In this document: positions 6,201 to 63,935 of the stretch, in pieces
How positions within the stretch are numbered: position 1 is the stretch's first letter
Layout: each line of letters starts with the position of its first letter
Assembly: GCF_026210795.1 (NCBI RefSeq)
Contig: NC_089430.1
Coordinates: 372,001 to 436,000 of the forward strand
Direction of reading: 5' to 3'
Length of the DNA stretch: 64,000 nt
Origin: Rhizophagus irregularis
Taxonomy: Eukaryota
Translations under genes and position numbers: made by a program
The notes under the pieces: generated by a model
Seen by the model: only the letters and a program-made list of their open reading frames with translations
Databases searched by the model: none
Told to the model about the DNA's origin: nothing

Positions 6201-6289
6201 AAAAAAAAGTATATAATCGCAATTGGACGATATAAAAAAAATAATAATTTCTTTGGTAATAAATTTATAAATTTATAAGCGAATACCAA

Positions 6290-10700: not shown

Positions 10701-11730
10701 CAGACTTTTATTAAGTTATTAGGTTTTTTTTATGATTATTGTGTTTATAGTAACAAAGTTTTATAGTTTTTTTTAGTAAAATTAGGCTTGTTTTAAGTAA
10801 AATTGGTAAAATCCACTTAAAACTGAGTAAAAATTCGGATAAAATTGCTATTGGTTAGCAACAATAGTTTATATGTCTGAACTATCATAACGCTTGATCC
10901 ATTACAACTAGTTAAATATCTATCAAGTTTTATTTAGTAAAACAATTCATTAGAAATTAATATTAAATTAGTTAATTCAATAAACAATAATTTCGTTATT
11001 GCTTACCAAATTGTTGCAGTATAACATCTATCTGTTATGAGCTATCCATTTCAACTGAAGATAAATGTTCTGATCCAAAAAGTTCTTATTTAGCTATATA
11101 AATAAATATTTCATTAATAATTAGTAATTAGTTAAATAAATAAATAAAAATTACATCATTTACTAACATAATGCAGTATAAGATTTTTCCCATTCAATCA
11201 GTACATTACATCAAGTCCATAACAGATAAAGAAAAGGAGGGTATTGATTGAATAGCAATATTCAAAATGAAAAAAAATAATAAAAAAGGTTAGCCACCTA
11301 TCGTATTATTCCATTTTGATTGGCACCTTCTATTCTGAAGCTACAAATCTGAACCTAAAATAGCAATGAAGAAAAAAATGGGTCGATTAGTAACTTATGA
11401 AATGAAATAAATAAAAAAATCATTCCATTTTGATCAGTTCCTTACTTAAAATTGATAAGTGGATTGGTTAGTAGTAATTCGAATAAAAAAATGTAATGTA
11501 TATTTTGTCAGCAGCATTACATTATGATCAAATGAATAAAAATAATAATAATAAAGGAACAGACGTTATCATCACATGACGAAAAATTTTGTGTTAGGTC
11601 ACCCGATCAAACTATTTATCCATTTTGGAAAATCATACGATGATTTGCATAATTCTTCTCAATAAAAAAATTCCAAATTCCAAAAATCCGATTTTTATTC
11701 TCCAAACAAACTATATTAATATAAGTGATA

Positions 11731-13436
11731 ATGGAAAACTCAATTAAATATAGATTAAGAAATGCATCAAACAATAAATCTTTAATTCATAAAACACATA
11801 ATATATTAAAGCCAATATTCAAATTATGTAATGAGTGTAATAAAAAAAGAAAACATTGGGATGAAAGTCATCAATGTTGTCATCTATGTTATAAAGCAAA
11901 AACGGTACTTATATCAAGTGGAAATGAAGCTGTTGATGATTTTATAAGGTATACACGAATTAATTGGGATGCAACTGATGCAACCTTTAAAATGGAATTC
12001 GTTCCTTATAATAGATTCAATGATATAGAATTTATTGCTGAAGGAGGTTTTAGTAAAGTTTATAAAGCCACTTGGATTGATGGCCCAATAGCTAGTTGGA
12101 ATTATAAAAAACAAGCGTATCGTCGTAAAGGTAAAATGATGGTCGCTCTCAAGGAACTTAATAATTCTAAAAATATCACTCCAGAAGAATTAAATGAGGT
12201 AAGATATTATTATTAAATTATATTTTTATTTCTCTAATAAGTAATTAATTTAATTTTTATTTTAGCTTAAGATATTTTATGATTTTGCTATAAGACATCA
12301 AAATTCATCAATCATGTATGAATATACAGATAGTTACTATGACTTTAATCATTATCATGATATAAGTAATCATTATGGTATCACTAAAAATCCTATAACT
12401 CAAAATTTTGTGATAGTTACGGATTATTATGAAGGAAATAATCTAACACGTGAAATAGCTAAACATTTTAGCCTTTTATTATGGTATCAAAAGTTACTTA
12501 TTTTAGAAAGCACAATTTATAAACTTGAAATGGTACATAATGTAAATATCATTCATAGAGACTATCATAGTGGAAATATTTTGATTTCAAATGATTTCAG
12601 TTCAACTCTATGTGATTTAGGAATAAGTAAATCTGCAATGGGACATGATGAAGAGATTTATGGCATTATTCCTTATATTGCTCCAGAAATACTTAAGAGA
12701 CAAAATTATACTATAGCTTCAGATATATATGGTTTTGGTATGATTATGTGGGAATTAATGACTGGTAGAAGACCTTTCTGGGATCATGATCATGATACAG
12801 ATCTAATTATTAAGATTTGTGATGGTTTTCGTCCTCCAATTGTCACAAATGCACCTGAAGGTTATGTTGAATTAATGCAAAGGTGTTGGCATTCTGATCC
12901 AAATAAAAGACCTACAGCAACAGAATTACGTAAAAAAATTGTGATTATGAAAAACAATGAACCAGAGTATTATTGTGATGGCATTACTAAAATTGTAAAA
13001 TCACCAGATATTGGACCTGTAAAATCAATTAATCCGGGTGCCATCTATAAAAGTAGATCCTTGAGTGAGATGATAAAATCTGCAGAGTCTACAAGAAGTT
13101 TAGAAAGTATTGATTCAGAAATTAGTAATAACAAATTTGAAGATAATTTAACTATAAATGATAATGGTACAATAAAACTTAGCATTATCTATTTTCTAAT
13201 TATATCATGATTTTTTTTACATACTAATATTTCTTTTATTTGTTAGACTATTTAACAAAAGAAATTGAATTGGATATTGATAACGATACAAGTTTTGGTG
13301 ATTCTAAAGATGATGGTAAGCAAATACCAAATAATTGTTTACACTATTTTTTTTTTGTTTTTTGCCAATTTACTAATTTTAATTATAATATTTTATCACA
13401 GATTATGTTACTGAAGAGATCAATTTTGATATATGA
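11731..13436 (+). CDS. TKL-type Ser/Thr/Tyr protein kinase
   Basis: Exons 11731-12198, 12266-13166, 13247-13315, 13402-13436 (GT-AG, in frame). Motifs AEGGFSKVY, VALKEL, HRDYHSGN, DLG, APE, DIYGFG; N-terminal CxxC..CCxxC motif. Confidence 0.88.
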
Positions 13437-17315: not shown

Positions 17316-19584
17316 TTAAATATCTAAATATATAATAAAAAAAATCGAGTTAAAAAAAAAAATGCTGAAATTTTATTTTAACTTTTAAATAAGAAAAAAT
17401 GTTTAATTACCATCAGGAAGTTCAAATTCATTTTGTTCTTCCAAATGAAAATTTGGATTATTATAGTATATTTCATCCTCATCTATAAAAACAAAAGAAA
17501 AAACAACTTAAAATTAATTATTGAAATTATATAGTTTAGATAATCTTACATACCATCAACGTTAATATTATTTTTCTTCACTTTTTGTTGCATTGTTTCT
17601 CCTTTATAATCATTTTGAATATCTTAAAAAATTTAAATAAAATTATGTTTTTAATATTAAATAAATTTTAGATCAATATAATAATTATTATTTTACTTGC
17701 CATTCTTTGAATTCCTTTTAAATATTTTGGATAACTTCTTACTATCAACTATATTATATAATTTAGTATAAAATTAATCATTGAATATTTTGATTATCGT
17801 AAAACAAATAATTTTGACGTACTATTCTTCTGAATACCCGATTTATCAAATTCATCAACTAAAAAAAAGTTAAAATAGATAAATATAATGTTTATTTTAC
17901 AGAAATCCAATAATACTTACTATTATCAGGAATAGATAAGTCATATGATTTACTATAAAATGCTAAAATGTCCACGAAACAAACACAATTATTAATTATT
18001 TTAAATAAATACTATAAATAAATTTAAATTTATACCTTCTAGTTCTTCTATTGTTTATATAATAAAGCATCATTGATTAATATTTAGTATCTTAATACTT
18101 TTTCTAAATATTTAACAAAACAATTCATTATAATAAATATAATACCTTCTGTTGCATTTCTGGGTTCAGGAAGATTGTCAAATTGATGAAGTTTACTTGC
18201 AGATAAACTACTACTACTACTTGTATAATTTTCTATACTTTTCCATTCTAAATTATTATTTACTTCTGGTTGAGTTAATGATTCATTTGATTTATTTTGA
18301 TAAAATAAATTGATTTCTTTTATTTTCTTCCAAAGTGCAGCAACATCGGGTCTTTTAAATGGATCAGCATCCCAGCATTGTTTCATTAAATTTTTATATT
18401 CTAAAGGAGTTCCTGGTACAATTTTTGGTCTTATACCATTAACAATATTCATTGCAAGATCATAATTATGTTCATAATTAATAAATGGTGGTTGTCCAGA
18501 TGAAATTTCCCACATAAGCATTGCAACACTATAAATATCAGATTTATGAGTCTGTACTTTTCCAATAATAACCTCAGGTGCCATATAAGGAAGATTTCCA
18601 TATATACTTTTTAATGGTTTATCCGCAGGTCCACAAAACCCAAGATCACTAATATTAAGTCCAAAATTTTTAAGTAATAAATTTCCAGAATGCAAATCTC
18701 TATGAATCGCATTCTCTTCATGAATTCTTATAAGTGAAAAAATTATATTCTCAGCAATTTGAATTCTTTCTTTCCATGTAAGTTTATTATGATTTTGTTG
18801 TAAATATTTTCTTAAATCTATATCCATTTCATACATTACAAGCATATAATTTCCATTTGATGGATCTTGTGTTAAACCAAAACATTGGACGATTTCGGTC
18901 CATTTATTGCTCATATTTAAATGTGATTTTGCCTATAAAAATAAAATATTAATATAACTTATAATATTAATAATTTTTTAAATACTTTAAATTACAAACC
19001 TCATCAAACCAATTTTGATTTGCATTTTCAACATTTACTAGTATTTTAAGCACTACAACATGTTCTCCAAATCTTTTTAATTGTTGTTTTTTAGAATCCC
19101 ATTCTTTATATTTTCCATTAATCCAATCTGCTGTATAGATTTCAGAGCATCCACCTTTTGTTAGATATTTGATATTTTTTAAATTATCATATGGAATCCA
19201 TTCTGGTATCCTATTTGGTGCCAGTGTTTTCATTTGACACTCTTGTAATAAATTATCAATATCAACATTTCCAGATGTCCAATTTGAAAAATTTGCTTTT
19301 AAATAATTTCGAACACAAAGTTCACAAAATAATGTAGCTAAACATTCTTGGTTACAATTTTCACAAATTCTTTTTGTTCCTTCATTAAACGTAATTTTTT
19401 CATCATCATAAGTTTTAGTTAATATTGTTATTGCTTCAGATTTCTCATTTTCTGTAAGTGATTCATCTGCAAGAACTGTTTGTTTTTTAAATTCAAATTG
19501 TTTATGTATATCATTGTAAATGTTATAATCTATTAATGCAAATGCTCCCTCAATTGCAAAATAAATTTTATCATTATAGGACAT
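17316..19584 (-). CDS. TKL-type protein kinase with a micro-exon-encoded acidic tail
   Basis: Exons 19584-19000 and 18932-18146, then short exons including a 12-nt exon (18047-18036) and a GC donor near 17700, ending ..ELPDDI* at 17316. Motifs TKGGCSEIY, HRDLHSGN, DLG, APE; CENC..CELC motif. Confidence 0.85.
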
Positions 19585-21051
19585 AATGAATTATATTGTA
19601 GAAGCTTCAAACTTTTAAAAATTAATTTAGAAAAAGTTTCTCAGAATGGAGTCAAATAAATTTATCAAAGTTAGTTGTGCAACTCAATGATCGTTACAAA
19701 AAAAAAATCGTACTACACGAGTCTGTGGTACGGGTTTGTACATTGTAAAAGGCGTAAAATTTTATACCAAAGACATGTGTCTTGCTTTTGTAGTTTTATT
19801 ATTTTTTTTTTTTTACAAGACAAATTTCCTGCATGTAGGTAAAATATTATAGTATTATGGCAATAAATAATCACAAACTTTTATTTGTGTATATTTTATC
19901 GTTCGTTTTATTTTTAAACTAGTACAATTATATGTGTGGTTAAGAATTCTTTGTTATACATATAAAGTTAATAGCAAATAACTGTATTACAGAATCAGAA
20001 CTAAAGGGATAAATTGATTTAATTGTGTAATGTTGTGTAATGTTGTGCAATGGTCCACTTGAAATTTTTTTTATGCCGATCTTATCATCAGATAGTAAAA
20101 CTTGTAACTTGTAAAAACCGAAAATTACAAGAAAAAACTAAAAGGAATAATATAGAATAAATAATAATATTTTTAGGAGAATTGATTAATATTTCATTAA
20201 ATGTATTCTTTTATGGAAATTTTATAAATAATTTGACGCGATACTCAATAAATAAATTTTACATCTTGTTTTTTAACGTAAAACTTTAACAGAAATTTGG
20301 TTTCTTCACGTGACTGGGTGGGTCCTGTTCTTTAGGAGATTTTTTGGCATTTTGTCTATTAAAATAATTGACTGAAACTTGATACTTATTTGATTCCAAA
20401 CAATATTTTAATGTGATAAATAAATTTATTAATAACAAGAAAAATTATAAAATTCAATGACTAATTATACCTTAATCTTAAATCCTATGTGACATGTGAC
20501 GCACGTCAGTTACAGTATCATCTGAGATCCTGACGCAAAGAGTTATTTATTTTTCACTGTAATTCACATATTAAACATATTAAAGCAACTAGAAAATTAA
20601 TACCGTGAAATTCTTTACATCTACTAAAAAAAGTTGCATCTCAATTAGTTATTGAATAACACAAAAATTACTCCTCATTATCAAATCTATCTAGTTTTAT
20701 AAATTTTTTATTTAATTAATAAACTCAGAAAATATATATAAAATAAACAATATAAATAAACTAAATTATAATATCTTCACAATTCAAAATCCTACTTAAT
20801 GTCATTCTTAATCAATCAATCCTATTGGAATAATTATCGAGGTGTAAATTTGTAAACTATATTTTTTTTAGAACCTCACAAAAAAACTACGATATATGTA
20901 ATTTTAAACTATATTGACGGAAAAATTCAAAGATATAAAATCATTACAGAATTACTTACGATTTAAATAATAAAAATAAACAAACAAATAAACTGACTAT
21001 TCTTAATAAACAGTGCTATAATAAATGTAAGTTTAAAATTTACCATCTTTA

Positions 21052-24000
21052 TTAAATGTTTAGTTGAGAAATATCAATTTGCAAAGATAACGACACTAAT
21101 TAATAAATAAAGTTTTCATTAATAATTTACAACTAATTTAAATACTTTTTATTAACCATTACCTGAAGATTCCATGCTAATTATATCATCGTTCTGATTA
21201 TCATAATAATCGACAGTATTTTTTGGTTCAGGAAGATTATTAAAATTAAGCAATCTACTGGTATAAATATCTTCTGAACGTGATTTATATGATAATCCTA
21301 AGCTGGTTGAAGGTGCACTACTGACCGCCAAATTCTTATTGATATTTTCTGCTTCTCTAATTTGTATTTGTATTTCATGATTTTTCAATTTATTAAATAA
21401 TTCATTAGACCATTGATTTAAAATTTTTTTGATTTCTTCTGCTTCTGGTCGAGTTAACGGATTTGAATCTAAGCATCTTTTAATTAAATGGACAATTAAT
21501 TGTGGTACTTTGATATAAAACCTTGGCCTGAGTCCTTTACAAATTCTTATTGCTAAATTATGATCATGACTTACATCATGATATGGAGGTAATTCAGAAA
21601 TTACTTCATACATAATAATACCAAAACTATAAATATCTGAGGCTTTGGTATAATTTTGTCCTCGTAAAATTTCAGGAGAAATATAAGGTAAAATACCATA
21701 TGTACTCTTTTTTGCATTTTCTGATGGATTGTAATCTGCAGGTTTACATAATCCCATGTCGGTTATACAAGTGAGATCTTTGAACCTTAGTATATTGCCA
21801 ATATGTAAATCTCGATGAATTAATTCGTTTTTATGAATATCTGCAAGCCCTCGTGCAATGCTAAGTAAATAATTAATTTTATCATTAAGATATAATTTGT
21901 TATGATTTTTATTTAAATAATTTCGTAAATCTCCATCCTCTGCAAAATCTAAAACCATAGCATAATTTTCTGTTTCTGGATCTTGAGTTATTCCATAAAG
22001 TTTAACAATACACCTACCCAAATTTACTTTACAGTGTGATGTAATCTAAAATAAATGTATATATATTAGCAAAATTAAATATTTGCAACTTTTCAAATAA
22101 TAAAATTAGTTACCTCATTCATAAACTCTAATGTAACATTTTTTGAATTATTCAAACATTTTAATGCCACCAACATATTTTTATTCCTTCTTCTCCAATT
22201 TTGATTTTTATTATCCCATTTATCTATACATCCATCAATCCAATTTGCTTTATACACTTTACCAAATCCACCTTTTGCAATATAAGTAATATCATGAAAT
22301 TTATTGTAAGGTATCCATTCCAACGCATGGCATGCATTATAACTATGGTCTGATAGCTGAATATCTTGAATAAATCCATCAATATCATTATTACCACTTG
22401 TCCAATTATTGAAATTTTGTTGAAAATGTAATGCATTACACACATGCTTATATTTTTTACATTCTTCACTATAAGCTACTATATAATTTTTTGTCTCCGG
22501 ATCCTTAGTTATCCCATAAACTTCATGAAAACCTATAAACTATAAAAATAAAATATTAACGAAAATAAAAATTTTCAGAATTTCATTAATAATAAAAATA
22601 ATAAATTCATACCTCATTAATAAATTTTAACAAAACGTTTTCTGAACTATTAAAGCTTCTCAAAGTTACAATCATATCTTGATTTTTTCTTTTCCAATTT
22701 TGATTTTTATCATCCCATATATTTATATATCCATCAATCCAATTAGCTCTATATAATTTATCAGAAAAATTTTGAAGTTGCAGATCTGCGCATACTTTTG
22801 TAGTACATTTAATGTTATAAAATTTATCATAAGAAATCCATTCTAATGTTTTTGATATCTGATAGGTATTATGTGACAATAGCTGAGTAGTCTGAATAAA
22901 TTCATCAATATCATTATTACCACTAGTCCAATTTTTGAAACTTCGTTGAAAATGTATTGCATTGCATACTTTTTTACATTTTTCACATATATCTTTCAGA
23001 ACAAGCATATAATTTTGTGTTTCTGGATCTTGGGTTATCCCATAAACTTTATTATCAAATCCTATAATCTGCAACTAAAATAAAATAACACTGAAATATA
23101 TTAGTAAAAATAAAATTTTATAAATTATACTAAATGAAAAATAATTTTAATACCTTATTCATTATAAATTTTGATTCAATAGATTTTGGATCTGTACTTA
23201 AATTTTTTAAAATTACAAACATATTTTGATGCTTTCTTTCCCATTGACCTTTATTATCCCATTGGTTTATATATCCATCAATCCAATTTGCTCTATATAC
23301 TTTATCACTATTCTTTGCAATACATTCAATATTATAAAATTTGTCATAAGGTATCCATTCTAATACTTTTGATAATTGATAGGTTTTATGTAATAGTTGA
23401 GAATTTTGAATAAATTCATCAATAATATTATTACCACTAGTCCAATTTCCAAAATTTAGTTGAAAGTGTATTGCATTACATATATTATTACATTGCTTAC
23501 ATGTTAAAACTACCATGTATTTTTCTGTTTCTGGATCTTGGGTTATTCCATAAACTTTATAGGAACCTATAGTCTACAAATAAAATAGATGTATTGAATA
23601 TAATAACAAAAAATATTTTATTAAATAATAGTATTAATTATACCTTATTTAATTCGCTAACTTTTAAAACATTTAAACTTTTCAAAATCAAATAAATATA
23701 TTTGTCTTTTCTTTTCCAATTTTGATTTTCATCATTCCATTCATTTATATATCCATCAATCCAACTTGCTCTATATATTTTATCTTTTACAATGCATTTA
23801 ATATAAAATTTATCATAGGGTATCCATTCTAATGCTTCTGATAATTGATAGGTTTCATGCGATGATAGTTGAGAATTTTGAATAAATTCATCAATAATAT
23901 TATTACCACTAGTCCAATTTCCAAAATTTAGTTGAAAGTGTATTGCGTTACATATATTATTACATTGCTTACATGTTAAAACTACCATGTATTTTTCTGT

Positions 24001-27000
24001 TTCTGGATCTTGGGTTATTCCATAAACTTTATAGGAACCTATAGTCTACAAATAAAATAGATGTATTGAATATAATAACAAAAAAATATTTTATTAAATA
24101 ATAGTACTAATTATACCTTATTTAATTCGCTAACTTTTAAAACATTTAAACTTTTCAAAATCAAATAAATATATTTGTCTTTTCTTTTCCAATTTTGATT
24201 TTCATCATTCCATTCATTTATATATCCATCAATCCAACTTGCTCTATATATTTTATCTTTTACAATGCATTTAATATAAAATTTATCATAGGGTATCCAT
24301 TCTAATGCTTCTGATAATTGATAGGTTTCATGCGATGATAGTTGAGAATTTTGAATAAATTCATCAATAATATTATTACCACTAGTCCAATTTCCAAAAT
24401 TTAATTGAAAGTATATTGAATTACATACATCATTACATTTTTCGCATGTTAAAACCACCATGTAATTTTCTGTTTCTGAATCTTGGGTTATTCCATAAAC
24501 ATTATCGAATCCTATAATCTGCAACTAAAATAAATAACATTGAATATATTAGTAAACATTAAATTTTATAAATTACATTGGGTGAAAAATAATTTTAGTA
24601 CCTTATTCATTTTTGATTCAATAGATTTTGGATTTGTACTTAAATTTTTTAAAATTACAAGCATATTTTGATGCCTTCTTTCCCAATTTTGACCTTCATT
24701 ATCCCATTGGTTTATATATCCATCAATCCAATTTGCTCTATATACTTTATTTCCGCTTGTTGAAATACATTTCATGTCATAAAATTTGTTATAAGGTATC
24801 CATTCTAATGATTTTGATAATTGATAGGTTTTATGTGATGACAGTTGAGAATCTTGAATAAATTTATCAATAATATTATTACCACTAGTCCAATTTCCAA
24901 AATTTAATTGAAAGTATATTGCATTACATATGTCATTACATTTTTTACATGTTAAAACCACCATGTAATTTTCTGTTTCTGGATCTTGGGTTATTCCATA
25001 AACTTTATAGCAACCCATAGTCTAAAATGAAATGGATATATTAAATATACTAACAATAATCAAAATATTCAAAATATTTTAATAAATGAATGATAATATT
25101 AATTATTACCTTATTTAATTCACTAACTTTTAAAATATGATCTAAACTTTTCAAAATCATAGATATATTTTGGCCTTTTCTTTCCCAATTTTGATTTGCA
25201 TAGTCCCATTTATTTATATATCCATCAATCCAATTTGCTCTATATACTTTATTACCACTTTTTGAAATACATTTAATATCATAAAATTTGTTATAAGGTA
25301 TCCATTCTAATGCTTTTGATAATTGATAAATTTTATGTGATGATAGTTGAGAATTTTGAATAAATTTATCAATAATATTACTACCACTAGTCCAATTTCC
25401 AAAATTTAATTGAAAGTATATTGCATTACATACATCATTACATTTTTCACATGTTAAAACCACCATGTAATTTTCTGTTTCTGAATCTTGGGTTATCCCA
25501 TAAACATTATTAAATCCTATAATCTGCAACTAAAATAAATAACATTGAATATATTAGTAAATATTAAATTTTATAAATTACATTAGGGGAAAAATAATTT
25601 TAGTACCTTATTCATTTTTGATTCAATAGATTTTGGATTTGTACTTAAATTTTTTAAAATTACAAGCATATTTTGATGCCTTCTTTCCCAATTTTGACCT
25701 TCATTATCCCATTGGTTTATATATCCATCAATCCAATTTGCTCTATATACTTTATTTCCGCTTGTTGAAATACATTTCATGTCATAAAATTTGTTATAAG
25801 GTATCCATTCTAATGATTTTGATAATTGATAGGTTTTATGTGATGACAGTTGAGAATCTTGAATAAATTTATCAATAATATTACTACCACTAGTCCAATT
25901 TCCAAAATTTAATTGAAAGTATATTGCATTACATACATCATTACATTTTTCACATGTTAAAACCACCATGTAATTTTCTGTTTCTGAATCTTGGGTTATC
26001 CCATAAACATTATTAAATCCTATAATCTGCAACTAAAATAAATAACATTGAATATATTAGTAAATATTAAATTTTATAAATTACATTAGGGGAAAAATAA
26101 TTTTAGTACCTTATTCATTTTTGATTCAATAGATTTTGGATTTGTACTTAAATTTTTTAAAATTACAAGCATATTTTGATGCCTTCTTTCCCAATTTTGA
26201 CCTTCATTATCCCATTGGTTTATATATCCATCAATCCAATTTGCTCTATATACTTTATTACTACTTTTAGAAATACATTTAATATCATCAAATTTGTTAT
26301 AAGGTATCCATTCTAATGCTTTTGATAATTGATAGGTTTTATGTGATGATAGTTGAGAATCTTGAATAAATTTATCAATAATATTACTACCACTAGTCCA
26401 ATTTCCAAAATTTAATTGAAAGTATATTGCATTACATACATCATTACATTTTTCACATGATGTTAAAACCACCATGTAATTTTCTGTTTCTGAATCTCGG
26501 GTTATTCCATAAACTTTATAGCAACCTATAGTCTAAAATGAAATAGATACGTTTGAATATGTTAATAAAAATTAAAAATCCTATTAAATAATAATATTAA
26601 TTATACCTTATTTGTAAGTGTTAATTCACTAATATTTGAAATATTTAAACTTTTTAAAATTACAACCATATTTTGATGTTTTCTTTTCCAATGTTGATTT
26701 TCAACATTCCATTTATTTATATATCCATCAATCCAACTTGCTCTATATATTTTATCTTTTACAATGCACTTATTAATATAAAATTTATTATAGGGTATCC
26801 ATTCTAACACATTGTATGATACAAAATAATTATGTTCTAATAGTTGAGTATCTTGGATAAATTTATCAACATAATTATTACCGCTTGTCCAATTTTTGAA
26901 ATTTTGTTGAAAATGTATTGCATTACATATATAACCACATTCTTCACATATATCTTTCTGAACTATTATATAATTTTTTGTATCTGGATTTTGAGTTATC

Positions 27001-27972
27001 CCTATTGTTAACTATAAGTATAATAAATTAATAAGAGGTATACTGTTTAAAAAATGATAAAATAACTTGCCTTGTTTACAAATTCTGATATATTATATTT
27101 TGGATCACTTAAATTTTTTAGAATTACAAACATATTTTGATGCCTTCTTTCCCATTGACCTTCATTATCCCATTGGTTTATATATCCATCAATCCAATTT
27201 GCTCTATATACTTTATTACTATTTTTTGCAATACATTTAATATCATAAAATTTGTTATAAGGTATCCATTCTAATGCTTTTGATAATTGATAGTTTTTAT
27301 GTGACAATAGTTGAGAATTTTGAATAAATTCATCAATAATATTATTACCACTAGTCCAATTTCCAAAATTTAGTTGAAAATGTATTGCATTACATATATT
27401 ATTACATTTTTCACATGTTAAAACCACCATGTAATTTTCTGTTTCTAAAATTTGGGTTATTCCATAAACTTTATAGCAGCTGATAATCTACAAATGAAAT
27501 AGATATGTTTGAATATGATATTAACAAAAATAAAAATCTTATTAAATAATAGTATCAATTATACCTTATTTGTAAGTGTTAATTCACTAATATTTGAAAT
27601 ATTTAAACTTTTTAAAATTACAACCATATTTTGATGTTTTCTTTCCCAATTTTGATTTTTATCATCCCATTTATTTATGCACCCATCAATCCAATTTGCT
27701 TTATATACTTTGTTTTTTTCAATGTACTTAATATTATGAAATCTATCATAAGGTATCCATTCTAGTGCTTTTTCTGCATCGCTATGAGCTAATAGTTGAG
27801 TATTTTGGATAAATTTATCAATATCATCATTACCACTAGTCCAGTTTTTAAAATTTTGCTTAGACCGTTTTTCAAAACAAATTTTATAACATTTTATAAA
27901 TATCTTATCTGACTTGTATAGAATAATGATGAGTATGAAGAAGAAGGCACCAATAATTTGAATGAAACCCAT
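21052..27972 (-). CDS. Giant TKL kinase (about 1,980 aa) with an N-terminal hydrophobic anchor and 12 exon-encoded Cys-motif/N-lobe modules
   Basis: Exons 27972-27565, 27487-27071, 27011-26607, 26532-26110, 26026-25607, 25523-25110, 25021-24602, 24518-24117, 24045-23644, 23573-23154, 23068-22613, 22539-22114 (all multiples of 3, phase 0), then 22045-21163 (HRDLHIGN, DMG, SPE) and 21095-21052. Confidence 0.85.
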
Positions 27973-37492: not shown

Positions 37493-37503
37493 ATTAATAA
37501 AAA

Positions 37504-37538
37504 CTAGAAATTGCGTTTTGCGGGGGACTTCGTCCCCC
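37504..37538 (-). mobile_element. Helitron/Helentron-type 3' terminus (element extends rightwards, 5' end uncertain)
   Basis: Perfect hairpin GGGGGAC-3nt-GTCCCCC (37522-37538), then CTAG|TTTT on the minus strand (37504-37507). Confidence 0.6.
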
Positions 37539-37899
37539 ATTGTTTAATTTTGTGTATTGAAATGTCAATATCAAATCAAGTTGCATTTTACTGGCGTTTA
37601 TAAAATGCTCTAACAGAAAAAATTTAATTTTTTTTTTTTTTGATTCAAATTATTTAATGATAAGTGACAACTAACATTATCATATTTATTAAAAGCATTT
37701 ATTAAAAGTATTTACAAAAAAAAAATAATAATTTACTGTATGCTAATAATTAAAATTCCACCTTTACTAAAAATTTACATGTTGTTAATGGTTTGGATAT
37801 TGGTTCCAGTTGGTTCGATTCCAACAGACAACAAATAAAGATAAGAAATTCCATAGAAGCTAAAGTCCTATAAAAATCGTGCATTATTTATAAAAGATC

Positions 37900-40800: not shown

Positions 40801-41170
40801 CAATGCTTAGGAACCGGAAGCCAAAACAATTAAAAATAATTTTTTTTTGAAGCTTTCACCTCAAAACTCACCCATATATCCAACGCGGAGCCAAAATCTA
40901 CAAAATAGAAGAAAAAAAAATTTAAAAAAAAATATTTTTTTTTAAAAGTTTCAAATCGAAACTTACCTATTGGAGATCTGGTATCCAAATCGGAACCAAT
41001 TTCTCTACAAAAATAAAGAAAAACATCATTTTTTTTTAAAAGTTTCAAATTTTGAAACTTATTGAGATTCCAATATCCAGTTGATTTCTTTACAAAAAAA
41101 GAAAAAAACGTTAATGTTTTTATTTTTAAAAAGTTTATATAATTTTTATTAGAGTCAAATACCCTACAAA
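37900..41170 (-). repeat. Tandem array of about 30 units of ~115 bp, each shaped as a micro-exon plus GT-AG intron
   Basis: On the minus strand each unit has a GTGAGT/GTAAGT donor, a ~80-nt T-rich intron ending TTTTGTAG, and a mostly 34-36-nt exon (e.g. 38722-38757, 38837-38872, 38953-38986). Confidence 0.85.
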
Positions 41171-41789
41171 AAAATAAAAAAATTAAAAAATTAATTTTTT
41201 CTAGAAATTTCTCTAATAAAAAATACTAAGTTTCGTAACAAAGTAAACTATTACAAAACTCACCTTTCCACCTATCCAAACTTGTCTGAACATAACAAAA
41301 TAAAAGGAAATATTAATAAAAATGTTTCCTTCCAAGAAAAAATTTTTTTTTTTTTTTAGTAAAACGAAAAAAAAGGGAATTAAATAATGATAAGTATTGT
41401 AATTGGATAATGATAATCAAAAAAAATGATGTTTCTTTCTAAAAAAAGAAAGAAAAATGATTTTTTTTAAAAAAATCCAAGATCTATTTATGACGCAATA
41501 TTTTTTTTATCCAACCAATTTTTTTTTTACTGCAAAAAAAAAGAGATGTAACACAATATTTTGGGGTTTTTTTTTTAGCTTAGAAAAAAAAAATATTCGT
41601 AGCTTTATTTCTTTGAAGATCATCTAAATCAAATTTGATGTGAAATCCTATTATTTGATGACTAAATTAAACATGCAATGAAAGTGGCACAGGAATGCTT
41701 AATTTGTAATTTTATTCTAATGATATCAAAAGAAGCAATTTGGTAAAAGCAATATTTTTTGCTATTTAGCGTCTATAGCTATAGCTATA

Positions 41790-41874
41790 TAGCAATAGCA
41801 ATAGCAATAGCAATAGCAATAGCAATAGCAATAGCAATTGCTATTGCTATATAGCTATAAAACATAGCTATATA
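41790..41874. repeat. (TAGCAA)8 microsatellite with an adjacent perfect 11-bp-stem hairpin
   Basis: TAGCAA x8 at 41790-41837; TATATAGCTAT-AAAAC-ATAGCTATATA at 41848-41874. Confidence 0.85.
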
Positions 41875-42100
41875 AAATTGAACAATTAAAGTTCACGTTG
41901 TGCATTTCCGAAACTATGAAAAAATGTATGAAGATCGCATAACAAATTCCATATTGAGCGAAAAAGTGAATAAATATGGAAGATGATCGTCAGAAATTTA
42001 TCATCCAAAAGCATACTATCGCTAACAAGAGTAAAAAAAAATTTTTATTTTTTACTGCAGAATTATTATGTTTTTAAGAAATTGAGGAAGAAGTTTGGGA

Positions 42101-44926: not shown

Positions 44927-46215
44927 CAGTCACGTCCGAAAGTGACGCCCGATTTAAAATTAATGCCAAAAATGGCAAAACTTTATTGATTTTCATTAAA
45001 ATTCACATAAAAAATAATTACTAAAAATGGTTAATAATGTGTTGGCCCTCCCCTTGCTTCTAGTACTGCATTTATTCTTTGTGGCATTGAAGCAACAACC
45101 TCTTCAAAAATGGAGCAATCCAAATTTTCCCATTCTTCACTTAGTGCAACTTTAAGTTCATCCACAGTTCTTGGAAAGACTTTACAACTCTGGATATTGT
45201 CCTTTAACTGCTTCCAGATGTTTTCTATTGGATTTAGATCAGGAGAATTTGCCGGCCAATCAATAACCACAATTTTATTCTTCTTCAACCAATCCTTGGT
45301 TATTTTCGCGGTATGTATGGGTGCATTATCCTGTTGAAAAATTGCAGCCCTTCCTGTTAACTCATGAACTGTATGCTGAAATGGATACAGATATGAATTT
45401 AGGATTCTAATGTAAGTATTTGAATTGATTTTTTTATTTCCTTCTTTATTTTCATCACAAAAAATTAATGGCCCTTTTATCCCTCCTGCAAAACAGCCAC
45501 AAACCATGACTGATTTTTGACCACTTTTAAAGATAGGTGTCAAGCATTCAGTGTTAAACCTTTCCCCTGTGTGTCTCCAAACTCTTATTTGTCGTGACTG
45601 CTTGCCAATCTCAACACTTGATTCATCTGAGAAAATAACTTGTGCCCAATCATAAGCTGTTTTTTCTTTATATTTCTCACACCAACTAATACGAGCTAAT
45701 GCATGCTTTTCTGAGATAAAGGGTTTTTTTGCAGCAACATGGGAATAAATTCCAACACTATGTAATGCTCTTTTAGCAGTTGTAAGGCTGCAATTTAAAT
45801 CTAATGTATTAATGACTTCATGTAAAGGTTCGCATCGATCTTGTGTAACTTTGTTTATGAGTGCATTTTTCTCATTATTATTGAGAGCAGGTGGACACCC
45901 CGATCTAGGTAAATTTTCAGTTTTCCCTGTCTTCTTGTATCTGTCAATAATTCTTCTTATTGTGGTGGGGTCACGACCCATTTTTCTTGCTATTTGTGCA
46001 GGGTTAAAATTCTCCATATATGCTAGTATTTTTCCTTTATCTTGAGAAGTTAACTCAGTTCTATGTGACATTATTTTTTTAACTTTGCAACGCGTTTATT
46101 AGGTTATGAAATTGTGAGAAAAACATTTAAAAATAAAAAAAAGGGGGTATAAATAATGTAAATTTTGTGTATCATAACACCGTACAAAATCGGGCGTCAC
46201 TTTCGGACCTGACTG
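44927..46215 (-). mobile_element. Full-length Tc1/mariner transposon (1,289 bp)
   Basis: 29-bp TIR CAGTCA[C/G]GTCCGAAAGTGACGCCCGATTT (1 mismatch), TA target duplication, and an empty paralogous site at ~59500-59520. Confidence 0.95.
45031..46071 (-). CDS. Tc1-family DD34E transposase, 346 aa
   Basis: N-terminal HTH; IFSDES, FQQDNAPIH, WPANSPDLNPIENIW; 34 residues between the second D and the E. Confidence 0.95.
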   Translation of the reverse strand: MSHRTELTSQDKGKILAYMENFNPAQIARKMGRDPTTIRRIIDRYKKTGKTENLPRSGCPPALNNNEKNALINKVTQDRCEPLHEVINTLDLNCSLTTAKRALHSVGIYSHVAAKKPFISEKHALARISWCEKYKEKTAYDWAQVIFSDESSVEIGKQSRQIRVWRHTGERFNTECLTPIFKSGQKSVMVCGCFAGGIKGPLIFCDENKEGNKKINSNTYIRILNSYLYPFQHTVHELTGRAAIFQQDNAPIHTAKITKDWLKKNKIVVIDWPANSPDLNPIENIWKQLKDNIQSCKVFPRTVDELKVALSEEWENLDCSIFEEVVASMPQRINAVLEARGGPTHY

Positions 46216-48315: not shown

Positions 48316-51300
48316 ATGTCATCTCAAAATGATATTATATGTGAAAGTTGTAATAAAATATATACAGATATTGATCATGAATGGTGTAAACCATGTGTAA
48401 TAAATAACTTAAAAAAAAATATCACGAACTGGACTAGTGGAAATGAAAATATTAATAATTTTATTCGAAAAATGCAATTAAAAATTAAAAAATATGATGA
48501 TATAATTGTTGAATGGATACCTTACAACCAATTTAATAATGTTAAACAAACAAACAAAGATGGTCTTGCTACAGCAATATGGAAGGATGGTTTATTAAAA
48601 TATGATGAAAAAGAAAGGAAACGTAAAAGATTATTTAATATAGAAGTTTCTTTAAAATGCTTGAACAATTCACAATCAAATGAGGTATGAAACTTCTATT
48701 TTTTTTGTAGTTTATTCTTAAAGTGCTTTTATTATAACAACCTTTTATATTAATAGGATGAGACATATTCCATTAAAGTAAATGAATATGATGATATTTT
48801 CAAAATATATGGAATATCCCAAAATCCAGATACAAAAAATTATATTATAGTACTTAATAATAGTTATTGCAAAGAATGTGGTGAAATATATACAAATGTA
48901 TGGGGAAAATGGTGTAAACCATGTGGAATAAATAATTTAAAACAAAATTTTACAAACTGGACTAGTGGGAATAAAAAAATTGACGAATTCATCCAAGAAA
49001 TGCAATTGTTAATTGAAAGTTATAATGATATAATTGTTGAATGGATACCTTATAACCAATTCAATAATGTTAAAAAAATAGGTAAAGATGGCTTTGATAT
49101 AGCAATATGGAAGAATGGTTCATTAAAATACAATTATGAAAAACTAAAATATGAAAGAGAACCTAATAAAGAAGTCACTTTAAAATGCTTGAATAATTCT
49201 CAAAATGTTATCAGTAACTTGCTAAATGAGGTATGAAACTTCTAATTTTTGTAATTTAATTCTTAAAAATACTTTATTTTAACAACTTTTATATTTAACA
49301 GGCTAAAGTATATTCCTATTATGAATATAATATTCCCAAAATATATGGAATATCCCAAAATCCAGGTACAAAAAATTATATTATAGTACTTAATAATAGT
49401 TATTGCAAAGAATGTGGTGAAATATATACAAATGTATGTGGAAAATGGTGTAAACCATGTAGAATAAATAATTTAAACCAAAATTTTACAAACTGCTGGA
49501 CTAGTGGGAATGAAAAAATTGATGAATTCATCCAAGAAATGCAATTGAAATTTGAAATATATGATGATATAATTGTTGAATGGATACCTTATAACCAATT
49601 CAATAATGTTAAAAAAATAGGTAAAGATGGCTTTGCTACAGCAATATGGAAGAATGGTTCATTAAAATACAATTATGAAGAAATAAAATATGAAAGAAAA
49701 CCTAATAAAGAAGTCACTTTAAAATGCTTGAATAATTCTCAAAATGTCATTAGTGGCTTGCTAAATGAGGTATAAAACTTCTAATTTTTGTAATTTAATT
49801 CTTAAAAATACTTTATTATAACAACTTTTATATTTAACAGGCTAAAGCATATTCCTAGTGCCTCGACCCGTATCCGGATCAATCCGGATTGATCCGGATT
49901 TTTTTTTTTTTCGGATATCCGGATTTTCACGGTTTTCATCCGGATTATAAACCGGATGAAAAATATCCGGTTTGACCCGGAATCCGGATGAAATTTTTAT
50001 TATTTTTTTTTTATTAATAATAATTTTGCTGATCCATAAAGATCTATATCTAAATGATATTATGGCTAATTATTTTTGCGCCTAATACCAATTTTTTTAT
50101 TAAAATTTATTAAATTTATATTTGTTATATTAAACTTTTTAATACAGTAAGTTTAAGAAGATTTTTCAATTATAATTTATTTATTGAAGTTTGTATCAGA
50201 TTTGTTTATTTAAATTTATACATTAACAAATAACAAATAATTTTAGATTTCACATTCAAACGTTCAAAAGAAAAAAAACTTTATATTATTTTTGTTAAAA
50301 CAAAATAATAATTATTGTTTTAAATGAAAAATTGTTCAATATTATAAATTTATATAATTATAACGACTTTTTTAAAAAATTAAAACTAGTGTTATATAAT
50401 TTGATTCAAATGATTCTTTAATTTTTGAAAGAAGAAACAAATCCTTAAAAAATTGCCTTACTAACCCAACACATCTATTTATAGTAATCTTTAGCTGTAT
50501 ATAAAAATATCTTGTTTAAAATTTCATAATTAGTTAATTTACAAAGAAATGTTAAACAATAGTCTGAGACAATGCTGAAATAATATGAAATTGTTTTAAA
50601 GAAAAGTATTTAATGAAATTGGAATTATGTAAATTTCGTGGTCTTGGATAATTTTGGCCAAATTTGTAATTCTGGCCGAAATTAAAATCACGTGACACCG
50701 GAAAAATAGTTTAGCCACCGGGCAAAAAATTTTTTATCGGCTGGCATGAAAATTTAATGTTACACAATTTGTAATTCTGGCCGGCGTTATGAATTCTGGC
50801 CAGAATTATTGCCGATCATTTGTAAATCCAATCCGGTTTCCGGTTTCTATCCGGATTATCTGATCCGGATTCAAAATCCGGGTCAATCCGGATATAATCC
50901 GGATTTTTTTTTTGTGTAATCCGGATGACGGTTTTCATCCGGGTCGAAGCACTACATATTCCATTAAAGTAAATGAATGTAATATTCCTAAAATATATGG
51001 AATATCCCAAAATCCAGATACAAATGATTATATTATAGTATTTAATAATAATAGTTGTTGCAAAGAATGTGGTGAAACATATACAGATATATGTAGAAAA
51101 TGGTGTAAACCATGTAGAATAAATAATTTAAAACAAAATTTTACAAACTGGACTAGTGGGAATAAAAAAATTGACGAATTCATCCAAGAAATGCAATTGT
51201 TAATTGAAAGTCATAATGATATAATTGTTGAATGGATACCTTATAACCAATTCAATAATGTTAAAAAAATAGGTAAAGATGGCTTTGCTACAGCAATATA

Positions 51301-54300
51301 GAAGAATGGTTCATTAAAATACAATTATGAAAAAATAAAATATGAAAGAGAACCTAATAAAGAAGTCACTTTAAAATGCTTGAATAATTCTCAAAATGTT
51401 ATCAGTAACTTGCTAAATGAGGTATAAAACTTCTAATTTTTGTAATTTAATTCTTAAAAATACTTTATTATAACAACTTTTATATTTAACAGGCTAAAGT
51501 ATATTCCTATTATGAATATAATATTCTTAAAACATATGGAATATCCCAAAATCCAGATACAAATGATTATATTATAGTACTTAATAATAGTTATTGTGAA
51601 GAATGTGGTAAAATATATACAGATATAGAAGCTAAATGGTGTAAACCATGTCAAATAAATAATTTAAAACAAAATTTTACAAACTGGACTAGTGGAAATG
51701 AAAAAATTGATGATTTCATTCAAGAAATGCAATTGAAAATTGAAAGTTATGATGATATAATTGTTGAATGGATACCTTATAACCAATTTAATACTATTAA
51801 AGAAATAAGCTTTTCTAAAGCATATTTAGCAATATGGAAGAATGGTTCATTAGAATATAATAAAGAAATAAATTATGAAAGAGAACCTGATAAAGAAGTC
51901 ACTTTAAAATGCTTGAATAATTCTCAAAATGTCATTAGTGGCTTGCTAAATGAGGTATAAAACTTCTAATTTTTGTAATTTAATCCTTAAAAATACTTTA
52001 TTATAACAACTTTTATATTTAACAGGCTAAAGCATATTCCATTAAAGTAAATGAATGTAATATTCCTAAAATATATGGAATATCCCAAAATCCAGATACA
52101 AAAAATTATATTATAGTACTTAATAATAGTTGTTGCAAAGAATGTGGTGAAATATATACAAATGTATGGGGAAAATGGTGTGAACCATGTGGAATAAATA
52201 ATTTAAAACAAAATTTTACAAACTGGACTAGTGGGAATAAAAAAATTGACGAATTCATCCAAGAAATGCAATTGTTAATTGAAAGTCATAATGATATAAT
52301 TGTTGAATGGATACCTTATAACCAATTCAATAATGTTAAAAAAATAGGTAAAGATGGCTTTGATATAGCAATATGGAAGAATGGTTCATTAAAATACAAT
52401 TATGAAAAACTAAAATATGAAAGAGAACCTAATAAAGAAGTCACTTTAAAATGCTTGAATAATTCTCAAAATGTTATCAGTAACTTGCTAAATGAGGTAT
52501 GAAACTTCTAATTTTTGTAATTTAATTCTTAAAAATACTTTATTTTAACAACTTTTATATTTAACAGGCTAAAGTATATTCCTATTATGAATATAATATT
52601 CCCAAAATATATGGAATATCCCAAAATCCAGATACAAATGATTATATTATAGTATTTAATAATAATAGTTGTTGCAAAGAATGTGGTGAAATATATACAG
52701 ATATATGTAGAAAATGGTGTGAACCATGTAGAATAAATAATTTAAAACAAAATTTTACAAACTGGACTAGTGGGAATAAAAAAATTGACGAATTCATCCA
52801 AGAAATGCAATTGTTAATTGAAAGTCATAATGATATAATTGTTGAATGGATACCTTATAACCAATTCAATAATGTTAAAAAAATAGGTAAAGATGGCTTT
52901 GATATAGCAATATGGAAGAATGGTTCATTAGAATACAATTATGAAAAAATAAAATATGAAAGAGAACCTAATAAAGAAGTCACTTTAAAATGCTTGAATA
53001 ATTCTCAAAATGTTATCAGTAACTTGCTAAATAAGGTATGAAACTTCTAATTTTTGTAATTTAATCCTTTAAAATACTTTATTATAACAACTTTTATATT
53101 TAACAGGCTAAAGCATATTCCATTAAAGTAAATGAATGTAATATTCCGAAAATATATGGAATATCCCAAAATCCAGATACAAATGATTATATTATAGTAT
53201 TTAATAATAATAGTTTTTGCAAAGAATGTGGTGAAATATATACAGATATATGGAGAAAATGGTGTAAACCATGTCAAATAAATAATTTGAAACAAAATTT
53301 TACAAACTGGACTAGTGGAAATAAAATAATTGATGAATTCATTCAAGAAACGCAATTGAAAATTAAAAGTCATAATGATATAATTGTTGAATGGATACCT
53401 TATAACCAATTTAATACTATTAAAGAAATAAGCTTTTCTAAAGCATATTTAGCAATATGGAAGAATGGGAAGAATGGTTCATTAGAATATAATGATTATG
53501 AAAGAGAACCTGATAAGGAAGTCACTTTAAAATGCTTGAATAATTCTCAAAATGTCATTAATGACTTGCTAAATGAGGTATAAAACTTTTAATTTTTGTA
53601 ATTTAATTCTATCTTAAAAATACATTATTATAACAACTTTTATATTTAACAGGCTAAGACATATTCCATTAAAGTAGATGAATGCAATATTCCTAAAATA
53701 TATGGGATATCCCAAAATTCAGATACAAATGATTATATCATAGTACTTAATAATAGTTATTGTAAAGAATGTGGTAAAATATATACAGATATAGGAGCTA
53801 AATGGTGTAAACCATGTCAAATTAATGGTTTAAAACAAAATTTTGTAAATTGGACTAGTGGAAATGAAAAAATTAACAATTTTATTCAAAAAATGCAATT
53901 AAAAATCAACAATTATAATGATATAATTGTTGAATGGATACCATATTACCAGCTTATTAGTATTAAAGAAATAGGTAAAGGTGGATTTGCTACAGTCTAT
54001 TTAGCAGTATGGAAAGATGGTCCATTAAATTATAATAAAAGGGAATACAAAAGGGTAACTAGTAATAAAGAAGTTGCTTTAAAATGCTTACATAATTCAC
54101 AAAATATTACTAATGAATTTTTAAATGAGGTATGAAATTTATTTGTTTAGGCTTCATTAAACACTTCTGAATAATGATTGTTTTTACTTTTTGATAGGTT
54201 AATGCATACTCTATTAGTATTAATAATGGAATTCTCAAAATATTTGGTATATCTCAAAATCCAGATACAAATAACTATATTATTGTACTTGAATATGTAG

Positions 54301-55067
54301 ATGGTGGAAATTTTAATAATTACAATAATTACATCAGTAGGAATTACACTTGGAATGAAAAATTGGTTGTACTAAGTAAAATTGGTAAAGGTCTTAAAAT
54401 AATTCATGAAAATAAAGTAGTTCACCGCGATTTCCATACAGGAAATATATTGGTATCAATTAATAATAATAGTTATTATTATATATCTGAAAATCATTCA
54501 AGTAATATATATATTTCAGATATGGGATTATGTGGAGAAGTCAGTAATATAGACAAAACAAAAATTTATGGAGTCATGCCATTTGTAGCTCCTGAAGTAT
54601 TAAGAGGAAAACCATATAGCCAAGCAGCAGATGTATATAGTTTTGGTATGATTATGTATTATATTGCAACTGGAAGACAACCTTTTGCCAATTGTGCTCA
54701 TGATAGTGTTTTGGTATTAAATATATGTAATGGAATTAGACCTGAAATAAATGAACAAGAAGCACCAAAATTTTATATTGATTTAATGAAAAATTGTTGG
54801 GATGAAGATCAAGATAAGAGACCAAGTGCTATTGAAATAGTAAAATTGGTCAATGATCCTTATTGTTCTGTTATAGATGAAGAAATTAAAAAGCAAATTG
54901 AAAAAGCAGAAGAATATAAAAGAACAAATTTTTTGTCTACTAGAAATAGTCAATCAATTCATCCACAAGCTTGTTATACTTCTCGATTACTCAATCCATT
55001 TACACAAGATCTTTCAAAAGATGATACTAGTTGTACTGAATGTTTAGATTGCGTTATTATTGATTGA
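48316..55067 (+). CDS. TKL kinase with 9 exon-encoded CxxC-x10-CxxC / N-lobe modules; exon 4 disrupted
   Basis: Exons 48316-48684, 48757-49230, 49302-49769, 49841-51421 (hAT insertion plus TAG), 51493-51954, 52026-52496, 52568-53035, 53107-53577, 53653-54129 (GKGGFATVY, VALKCL), 54198-55067 (HRDFHTGN, DMG, APE). All introns phase 0; about 1,509 aa if exon 4 is skipped. Confidence 0.8.
49856..50954. mobile_element. Non-autonomous hAT element inserted in kinase exon 4
   Basis: TIR TAGTGC[C/T]TCGACCCG, 8-bp TSD CATATTCC (49848-49855 / 50955-50962), many subterminal ATCCGG/CCGGAT repeats. Confidence 0.92.
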
Positions 55068-63059: not shown

Positions 63060-63935
63060 TTATATTTCACATTCTAAACATTCAGAATATTTCGGAAGAT
63101 CATTTGTATAGGAATTAAGTAGTTGTGATGTATAAACAGCTTGTGGATGAGTGGGTGATTGTCTTCTTTCCTCTAAAAGTATGGTATTTGATTCTTTGTA
63201 CTCTTCCGCTTTTTTAAATTGCTTTTCAATATCATAATGTTGTTGGTTTTTTTCTTCGGTTAACAAATGTGAATTTGGTACATATGATTCATGAAATAAA
63301 TGAATCGATTCTGCTATTTCAGTTGCTTTTGGTCTATTATCTGGATTTAAATTCCAACACTTCTTCATTAAGTCTACATAACATTCTGGTACTTCTAGTT
63401 CATTCATTTTAGGTCTAATTCCCTCACAGATATCCAATGCTAGATTTTCATCATGTGCACAATAGGAAAAAGGCTGTCTGCTAGTTGCTATAAAATACAT
63501 AATCATACCAAAACTATATATATCTGCTGCTTGAGTGTAAGGTCGTCCTCTCAACACTTCAGGTGCTACATAAGGCATAACTCCATAAATATTTTCTTCA
63601 TCCGTATTATCAACTCTTTCACATAATCCCATATCTGCTATACACATTGAACTATAATCTTCTAAAAAAGCATACATTGATAATATATTTCCTGTATGAA
63701 AATCACGATGAACCATTTGTCTTTCATGAATTTCTTCAAGACCCTTTATAATACATATTAATATTTCTATATTATGTGACCAGTTAAGATTTTTATAATG
63801 TTTATTTATCCAGTTATATAAACTTCCGCCTTCTGCATAATCAAGAACCATAATATAATTATTTGTATCAGGATTTTGAGATATTCCGTATATTGAAAGA
63901 ATTCTATCAGATTCATTAATAGAATATCCTTTAAT
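63060..63935 (-). CDS. Last exon of a TKL kinase (gene continues off the right edge)
   Basis: Acceptor AG at 63936-63937; IYGISQNPDT, HRDFHTGN, DMG, APE, DIYSFG. Confidence 0.88.
   Translation of the reverse strand: MKGYSINESDRILSIYGISQNPDTNNYIMVLDYAEGGSLYNWINKHYKNLNWSHNIEILICIIKGLEEIHERQMVHRDFHTGNILSMYAFLEDYSSMCIADMGLCERVDNTDEENIYGVMPYVAPEVLRGRPYTQAADIYSFGMIMYFIATSRQPFSYCAHDENLALDICEGIRPKMNELEVPECYVDLMKKCWNLNPDNRPKATEIAESIHLFHESYVPNSHLLTEEKNQQHYDIEKQFKKAEEYKESNTILLEERRQSPTHPQAVYTSQLLNSYTNDLPKYSECLECEI

Follow-up and report, generated by a model that had tools for sequence, protein, structure and literature searches.

Gene B (48316-55067, + strand) is a kinase gene in a 64,000-nucleotide stretch of the Rhizophagus irregularis genome (contig NC_089430.1, positions 372,001 to 436,000, hereafter the window). 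It encodes eight modules that lack a glycine-rich (Gly) loop and are predicted to fold as kinase N-terminal lobes (N-lobes), followed by one kinase with intact motifs. We place about even confidence in the reading that this array is a shuffled binding or regulatory extension of the kinase, a sensor or brake, and that the present copy is dead unless its fourth exon is skipped. The architecture and a large Glomeromycotina family of hundreds of related proteins are practically certain. The architecture is real, apparently undescribed and common across arbuscular mycorrhizal (AM) fungi. Gene B is a damaged member of this old family rather than a fresh expansion, and the interest therefore lies in the family.

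Architecture of gene B

The window has a GC content of 21-31% and holds several spliced kinase genes. Gene B has ten exons, which encode nine N-lobe modules and one C-terminal lobe (C-lobe) (Table 1). All nine introns are GT-AG, 68-75 nt long and in phase 0, and they cut after ..NE (..NK in exon 7), in agreement with the shared intron position given in a preliminary description of this DNA. That description also listed nine phase-0 module exons; eight are indeed open with the reported sizes (462-477 nt, the first 369 nt), and exon 4 is split by a miniature inverted-repeat transposable element (MITE) and carries a TAG stop. Exons 1-9 each encode a Cys knuckle, a WTSGN..F.QE.QL helix, an EWIPY motif, strands β1-3 and half of helix αC. 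Exons 2-10 open with the remaining αC and β4-β5, and exon 10 runs on into the C-lobe. Since the module spans the intron, the repeat at the protein level is a whole kinase N-lobe, of which the exon represents a circular permutation; therefore exon gain or loss adds or removes one complete lobe in frame. The αC of module 1 is 6 residues shorter than in paralogs. The knuckle spacing is CxxC-x11-CxxC in most units, which corrects the motif CKEC-x10-CKPC given previously.

The full catalytic set, GKGGF, VALK, the αC Glu (NE), HRDFHTGN, DMG and APE, is found in exons 9-10, and exon 10 scores 115.5 bits against PF07714 (cut-off 23.1). Gene B thus encodes a predicted tyrosine-kinase-like (TKL) kinase with intact catalytic motifs. 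A 183-residue record of Rhizophagus irregularis DAOM 181602 is 100% identical to its last exon. For the repeat module no Pfam family was above cut-off, with only sub-threshold zinc-ribbon hints for the knuckle, and annotation consequently misses the module. No NACHT or NB-ARC hit was obtained in a Pfam scan of four exons, and the ten exons all consist of N-lobe modules plus one C-lobe.

Two trivial explanations of the repeats were rejected. Simple exon shuffling fails because the duplicated unit crosses the intron and takes in β4-β5 of the next exon. An assembly artefact is at odds with the 12-67 nt by which units B2-B8 differ, and with the recurrence of the same design in many assemblies.

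Motif loss and predicted fold of the upstream modules

As described before, the Gly loop is degraded in all gene B modules except the last: GKGGF occurs in module 9 only, and GKDGF, SFSKAY or TNKDGL elsewhere. The loss extends to family B, to which gene B belongs, and to family A, represented in the window by the array kinase gene A. Counts were made on proteins with at least three modules and one C-lobe (86 of 120 in family B, 85 of 113 in family A). The Gly loop is present in 81/86 last modules versus 1/613 upstream modules of family B and in 82/85 versus 5/395 of family A, or 163/171 versus 6/1,008 when pooled. Two further ATP-site features of family B follow the same trend, the VAIK Ala being kept in 35% of 470 inner versus 96% of 79 last modules, and the αC Glu in 62% versus 97%. 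The knuckle Cys residues, WTSG, F..E.QL, EWIPY, W.DG and GISQ are about equally conserved in these inner and last modules.

Structure prediction was carried out for two relatives. The model of P0095, a four-module paralog with a C-lobe 77% identical to that of gene B, has a predicted local distance difference test (pLDDT) of 78 and a predicted template modelling score (pTM) of 0.59, with an identical strand-helix order in every module. Its catalytic part matches the tyrosine and TKL kinases HER2, FGFR2, RET and CTR1 at Z 25-27, and JAK structures top the Foldseek list for the four-module model. P0460, a two-module relative without C-lobe, gave a pLDDT of 83. Comparison of this model with 48,161 chains revealed kinase folds in all of the best 50 matches, and Foldseek agrees. 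The best match is RIPK2, with a Z of 10.3 and a root-mean-square deviation (rmsd) of 2.2 over 83 residues, followed by the MLKL pseudokinase (Z 10.2, rmsd 2.0, 81 residues). These matches cover residues 41-166 of the P0460 model only; the upstream modules stop at β5 and have no C-lobe. A module profile searched against the sequences of solved structures yielded nothing below E=0.08. From the models, the upstream modules are predicted to be free-standing kinase N-lobes.

Distribution of the array family

When module 9 of gene B served as query, E<=0.001 was reached by 825 of 985 candidate proteins (280-2,000 residues), and the best 120 were examined; with the last module of gene A, 349 of 384 passed and 113 new ones were examined. 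Both lists are ranked by score and favour long arrays, so the share of arrays among all kinases is not derivable from them. The best 120 of 825, from R. irregularis, R. clarus and Glomus cerebriforme, contain 4-15 modules and the 113 new matches 3-13, so that 233 of the 233 top array matches have 3-15. A profile search of 1.84 billion representatives returned 3,201 hits, the best 150 of which were examined. Twenty representatives were traced to their species (18 picked as divergent arrays, two from the earlier lists): five are from Acaulospora morrowiae, one each from Ambispora leptoticha and Racocetra fulgida, and the remainder from Rhizophagus. Arrays therefore occur in Acaulospora, Racocetra and Ambispora besides Rhizophagus and Glomus, and the concern that they might be rare is removed. 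Matches in the Atlas are Mucoromycota kinase clusters, unnamed or generically named.

Among 79 metagenome loci, most are too short for module counting and few are informative. L042, L044, L050, L051 and L054 belong to a distant soil-fungus kinase family of 35-37% GC. Its several N-lobe exons are degenerate and differ from one another, follow a fixed order and share the intron position of the arrays; this family is an older, non-homogenised version of the array design. In L012:2-790 and from L013:56 onward, the C-lobe continues in frame into the next N-lobe, forming whole kinase-kinase tandem fusions of family A. From L018:305 onward lies an A-type array whose knuckle has 4 Cys and whose junction is longer, taking in the hinge residues, which suggests a separate duplication breakpoint.

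Origin of the repeat units

Mean amino-acid identity is 76% within B units, 66% within A units and 39% between A and B, confirming that gene B repeats are closer to each other than to those of gene A. Such resemblance within a gene is alone an insufficient argument for independent expansion. A tree of 1,133 units sets A apart from B, and inside each, the upstream modules of many genes for the most part group together. Gene A and gene B units do not interleave, which was the test set in advance by the preliminary description. In a 62-row tree, family A is supported at 97/98 and includes the single-module kinase S1 on a long branch; the support for family B is 99/90. A single clade of the upstream modules of A and B was rejected by the approximately unbiased (AU) test (p=0.00023, 62 chosen rows) and again under a mixture model (p=0.00033, 35 rows).

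A clade of the nine gene B units was likewise rejected (p=1e-57, 31 rows), which rules out a gene-specific expansion of gene B from one module. Unit 1 groups with the first modules of paralogs, units 2-8 with inner modules and unit 9 with last modules. As the units group by position with paralog units, gene B inherited an array. We infer from the modules shared with four-module paralogs that this array had about four modules, and that amplification of the inner ones by unequal exchange then brought it to nine. Independence is thus counted per family, not per gene B. The earlier proposal of at least two expansions from a one-module ancestor survives as a probable statement on families A and B and falls for gene B itself. 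The two single-module kinases of the window, S1 and S2, had been taken as the unexpanded state; both indeed carry a single module and share the phase-0 intron, but at 28-39% identity to the gene A or gene B arrays they are distant relatives.

We consider two or more array origins probable. Acaulospora and Ambispora modules form their own groups in the wider tree, and the inner modules of Acaulospora nest among its own last modules (97/94 within 100/99). The alternative is a two-module kinase that arose once in the Glomeromycotina ancestor, after which families rebuilt their arrays by last-exon duplication, combining the old junction with their own catalytic lobe. Several observations lean towards this alternative and away from repeated origins. 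The junction from β5 to Cys measures 8-9 residues in A, B, Ambispora and Racocetra. The distant soil-fungus family stacks degenerate lobes with the same intron position. Family A is not a supported clade in the wider tree with Acaulospora and Ambispora, and single-module A-type genes are not resolved as basal. The single-module P0123 is nested among arrays, so contraction to one module happens and can produce single-module genes. Moreover, the unit tree alone is no proof of independence, because last-exon duplication would rebuild an array from the family's catalytic lobe with the old junction kept, which makes re-seeding and new origin indistinguishable there. The different junctions of 18 residues in Acaulospora and ~25 in L018, together with the kinase-kinase fusions of L012 and L013, speak against a single origin, as they indicate that duplications with new breakpoints recur. 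In addition, the 3-Cys knuckle, a derived form, is present in 70 of 112 family A first modules, and none of the 112 has the 4-Cys knuckle that single-module A-type genes retain. A single ancient origin is accordingly viewed as possible and rather unlikely.

Lesions in exon 4

The insertion in exon 4 has 15-bp terminal inverted repeats (TIRs) with one mismatch and is flanked on both sides by the 8-bp target-site duplication CATATTCC. The longest stop-free stretch inside it is 71 codons. In three of the four DNA runs examined (contigs in X3, X6 and X4), the end of the insertion is found next to other flanks, indicating a multi-copy element. The insertion looks like a hAT-type MITE on the basis of its TIR and 8-bp target duplication, which we take to be hallmarks of hAT elements. 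It shares with hAT-superfamily MITEs the short TIR, the 8-bp target duplication, the lack of coding capacity and the occurrence in multiple copies. A recent expansion of hAT elements in Rhizophagus irregularis has been reported (PMC8647823). A candidate MITE-free allele in run X4, an empty-site joint, was not usable as units 6 and 8 carry identical sequence.

The second lesion is a premature TAG, where sister units read TGG. With exon 4 retained, translation ends at codon 443; with exon 4 skipped, a 1,509-codon frame without internal stop results. Units 4, 6 and 7 differ by 16-20 nt, and both lesions are younger than the duplication that produced these units. The gene B copy is likely a pseudogene unless the phase-0 exon 4 is skipped, and we lean towards it being non-functional. 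No gene B exon joint was detected in short contigs of four runs (RNA by guess only), which says nothing either way; paralog-like spliced joints at the intron after ..NE were seen in such contigs.

Selection and shuffling

Gene B units are mosaic, with 556 of 1,378 informative-site pairs incompatible, indicating that repeats were exchanged by recombination. The likely counterpart in another strain, covered by two neighbouring accessions, has a C-lobe 94% identical to that of gene B and five annotated modules, whose best gene B matches are 80-85% identical. For the inner units of gene A, a crude segregating-site count gave a ratio of non-synonymous to synonymous polymorphism (pN/pS) of 0.59 (p=0.002), pointing to purifying selection. 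It is highly probable that the arrays are selected as folded domains.

Neutral tandem amplification would explain the arrays differently: in a genome compartment rich in repeats, a ~540-bp unit readily duplicates without breaking the frame, and redundant kinase copies would tolerate the added lobes as baggage. Several results weigh on this side. Besides the gene B copy being broken, its units 2-8 have a pN/pS of 0.72, not different from 1 (p=0.17), and the five youngest show 29 non-synonymous and 4 synonymous differences (ratio 1.5, p=0.31), likewise not different from neutral. A C-lobe is missing from 32 of the 120 and 25 of the 113 array proteins as annotated; pseudogenisation or divided gene models could account for these. 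In R. irregularis, kinase genes are high-copy and show an enrichment of methylation (PMC8647823), which fits tolerated drift. On the other hand, the 470 inner modules keep their structural motifs like catalytic modules while losing ATP-site features, gene A combines its low pN/pS with 12 open exons, and the same pattern is found in four AM-fungal families. Neutral amplification is therefore regarded as improbable. The term 'selected' that had been applied to the architecture is supported at the family level by gene A and by the motif conservation of inner modules, and not for the broken gene B.

Proposed mechanism

Based on these results, we propose a mechanism for the arrays. A segment of ~540 bp, from the Cys knuckle across the αC intron to the end of β5, would have been duplicated, each unit being a whole N-lobe, and unequal crossover or exon skipping would remove or add one whole lobe in frame. 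Families A and B, and probably further lineages, would each have undergone this duplication on their own, with gene B growing from ~4 to nine modules. Adjacent lobes would pack in a fixed orientation, and the lobe adjoining the kinase would restrain it in the manner of the pseudokinase domains of JAKs and plant tandem kinases. The kinase would then be released or tuned by an N-lobe-binding protein, for which a paralogous kinase, an inhibitor and a foreign effector are candidates. A binding or regulatory role fits best with lobes that are folded, have lost ATP-site features, keep their core, lie in cis to a live kinase and are quickly shuffled. We put this sensor or brake mechanism forward tentatively, at somewhat less than an even chance. 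Two points tell against it: the folded models are those of the paralogs P0095 and P0460, not of gene B, and the pTM of 0.71 for P0460 may be read only as a hint of fixed lobe packing.

A wider version is more speculative. AM fungi might repeatedly have made the kinase N-lobe a repeat sensor, giving hundreds of recombining, strain-variable intracellular receptor kinases for putative non-self or effector sensing, in which half-kinase baits replace leucine-rich repeats (LRR), WD40 or TPR. We hold this to be a minority possibility.

Alternatively, the lobes could mimic N-lobe kinase dimers and form a putative rigid platform, an oligomer or scaffold rod that recruits paralogous kinases, with the repeat number setting signal strength and no foreign ligand involved. 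Several of the RIPK, MLKL, JAK and RAF-type kinases dimerise via the N-lobe, and these are the nearest structural neighbours of the models. The pTM values (0.71 for the two-module model, 0.59 for the four-module model) and the high conservation of the β4-β5 region are also in line with a rod. A constant spacer would not be expected to have modules that shuffle and diverge so quickly among close relatives, and a rod is regarded as improbable. A splice-combinatorial receptor is very unlikely. In this reading, varied skipping of the symmetric phase-0 exons, whose introns are near-identical, would yield many isoforms and rescue exon 4. The 1,509-codon frame left by exon 4 skipping, the location of both lesions in one exon and the few differing bases among gene B introns 2-7 would suit it, but none of the five pairs of annotated cluster members or isoforms that were compared differs by a whole module, and by a rough reckoning two lesions in one exon favour skipping only ~2-3-fold.

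Other features of the window

The kinase whose C-lobe exon lies at the end of the window has a 6-module protein as best hit and is probably a third array running off the window. In gene A, intron 2 apparently uses a GC donor (27070, - strand). At 45031-46095 (-), 2.2 kb upstream of gene B, an open Tc1/mariner-type transposase frame has DDE_3 and HTH_Tnp_Tc3_2 above cut-off. A 514-codon frame at 1629-3173 (+) has a weak F-box-like start (E=0.14). The multi-exon gene at 6263-10255 (+) has membrane segments resembling a TRP-type channel, with no Pfam support in the one exon scanned. At 36677-37543 (-), a 288-codon frame ends in a basic and acidic low-complexity tail and has no Pfam family. The region 38000-42000 is AT-rich and strongly skewed with recurring FVDFGF-like translations, and is probably a repeat element.

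Table 1. Positions of gene B exons, exon 4 lesions and other kinase features in the window
Feature	Position	Strand	Description
Gene B exon 1	48316..48684	+	369 nt; start codon; module 1: Cys knuckle, WTSGN helix, EWIPY, β1-3, first half of αC
Gene B exon 2	48757..49230	+	474 nt; remainder of N-lobe 1 (β4-β5), then module 2
Gene B exon 3, module 3	49302..49769	+	468 nt
Gene B exon 4, module 4	49841..51421	+	MITE and nonsense codon; 474 nt minus insertion
Left target-site duplication	49848..49855	+	CATATTCC (8 bp)
hAT-like MITE in exon 4	49856..50954	.	1,099 bp, non-coding, multi-copy; 15-bp TIR starting TAG, sub-terminal ATCCGG repeats
Right target-site duplication	50955..50962	+	CATATTCC (8 bp)
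Premature TAG in exon 4	51299..51301	+	sister units TGG
Gene B exon 5, module 5	51493..51954	+	462 nt; SFSKAY type
Gene B exon 6, module 6	52026..52496	+	471 nt
Gene B exon 7, module 7	52568..53035	+	468 nt
Gene B exon 8, module 8	53107..53577	+	471 nt; SFSKAY type
Gene B exon 9, last module (catalytic N-lobe)	53653..54129	+	477 nt; GKGGF, VALK, αC Glu
Gene B exon 10, C-lobe	54198..55067	+	β4-β5, hinge, HRDFHTGN, DMG, APE, stop; PF07714 E=3e-33
Gene A, family A 12-module array kinase	21152..27972	-	3-Cys knuckle; all exons open
Single-module kinase S1	11725..13210	+	same phase-0 intron at 12199
Single-module kinase S2	18084..19590	-	same phase-0 intron at 18999
C-lobe exon, third family-B kinase	63060..63935	-	best hit a 6-module protein (76%); upstream part beyond window

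Comparison with known systems

Among the unexplained features of AM-fungal genomes, the kinase expansion stands out most, and it is generally tallied by Pfam domain alone. The present analysis finds a hidden regular design in a large part of it: several lineages have built anew a stack of dead half-kinases on a single live kinase, and the stack is shuffled among close relatives. Should the array prove to be a sensor, AM fungi would have in it a candidate system for non-self recognition. We know of no other protein with an isolated kinase N-lobe as repeat unit. No description of N-lobe arrays was found in a literature search that left subscription papers mostly outside, and gene-family supplement tables could bear on novelty.

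The C-lobe exon of gene B matches PF07714, the domain of the expanded TKL kinases of AM fungi. Their expansion was reported in PMC3886924, PMC6123716 and PMC8647823 and, in these and PMC11952901, linked to transposons and methylation. In contrast to the present view, the accessible text of the first three gives kinase-domain counts and leaves repeated N-lobes unmentioned.

Like the arrays, JAK and TYK2 have a dead kinase-like domain before the active one, and JAK structures come first among the Foldseek matches of the four-module model. Their JH2 domain, which binds ATP, is one pseudokinase with both lobes, whereas the array modules are N-lobes only, repeated and each with a Cys knuckle; their motifs are degraded as in a pseudokinase, but the C-lobe is absent.

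The nearest working models for the arrays are plant tandem kinases, with their pseudokinase decoy and brake, and fungal NOD-like receptors (NLRs), with their recombining repeats; the array kinases belong to neither. Plant tandem kinase proteins (Rpg1, WTK1-4) similarly pair an active kinase with a kinase-derived domain in cis that is often inactive, and this domain has been modelled as decoy and regulator (PMC8761531). They consist of two whole kinase folds, whereas the array family has up to 14 half-domains without C-lobe; in gene B there is one C-lobe, and the upstream modules end at β5. With the repeat sensors of fungal NLRs (HET-E/HET-D WD40, ANK, TPR), where near-identical repeats are shuffled within and between genes (PMC10197012), gene B shares recombining, mosaic units. 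It differs from them in having no NOD domain, and in that its repeat is a kinase lobe of ~155 residues.

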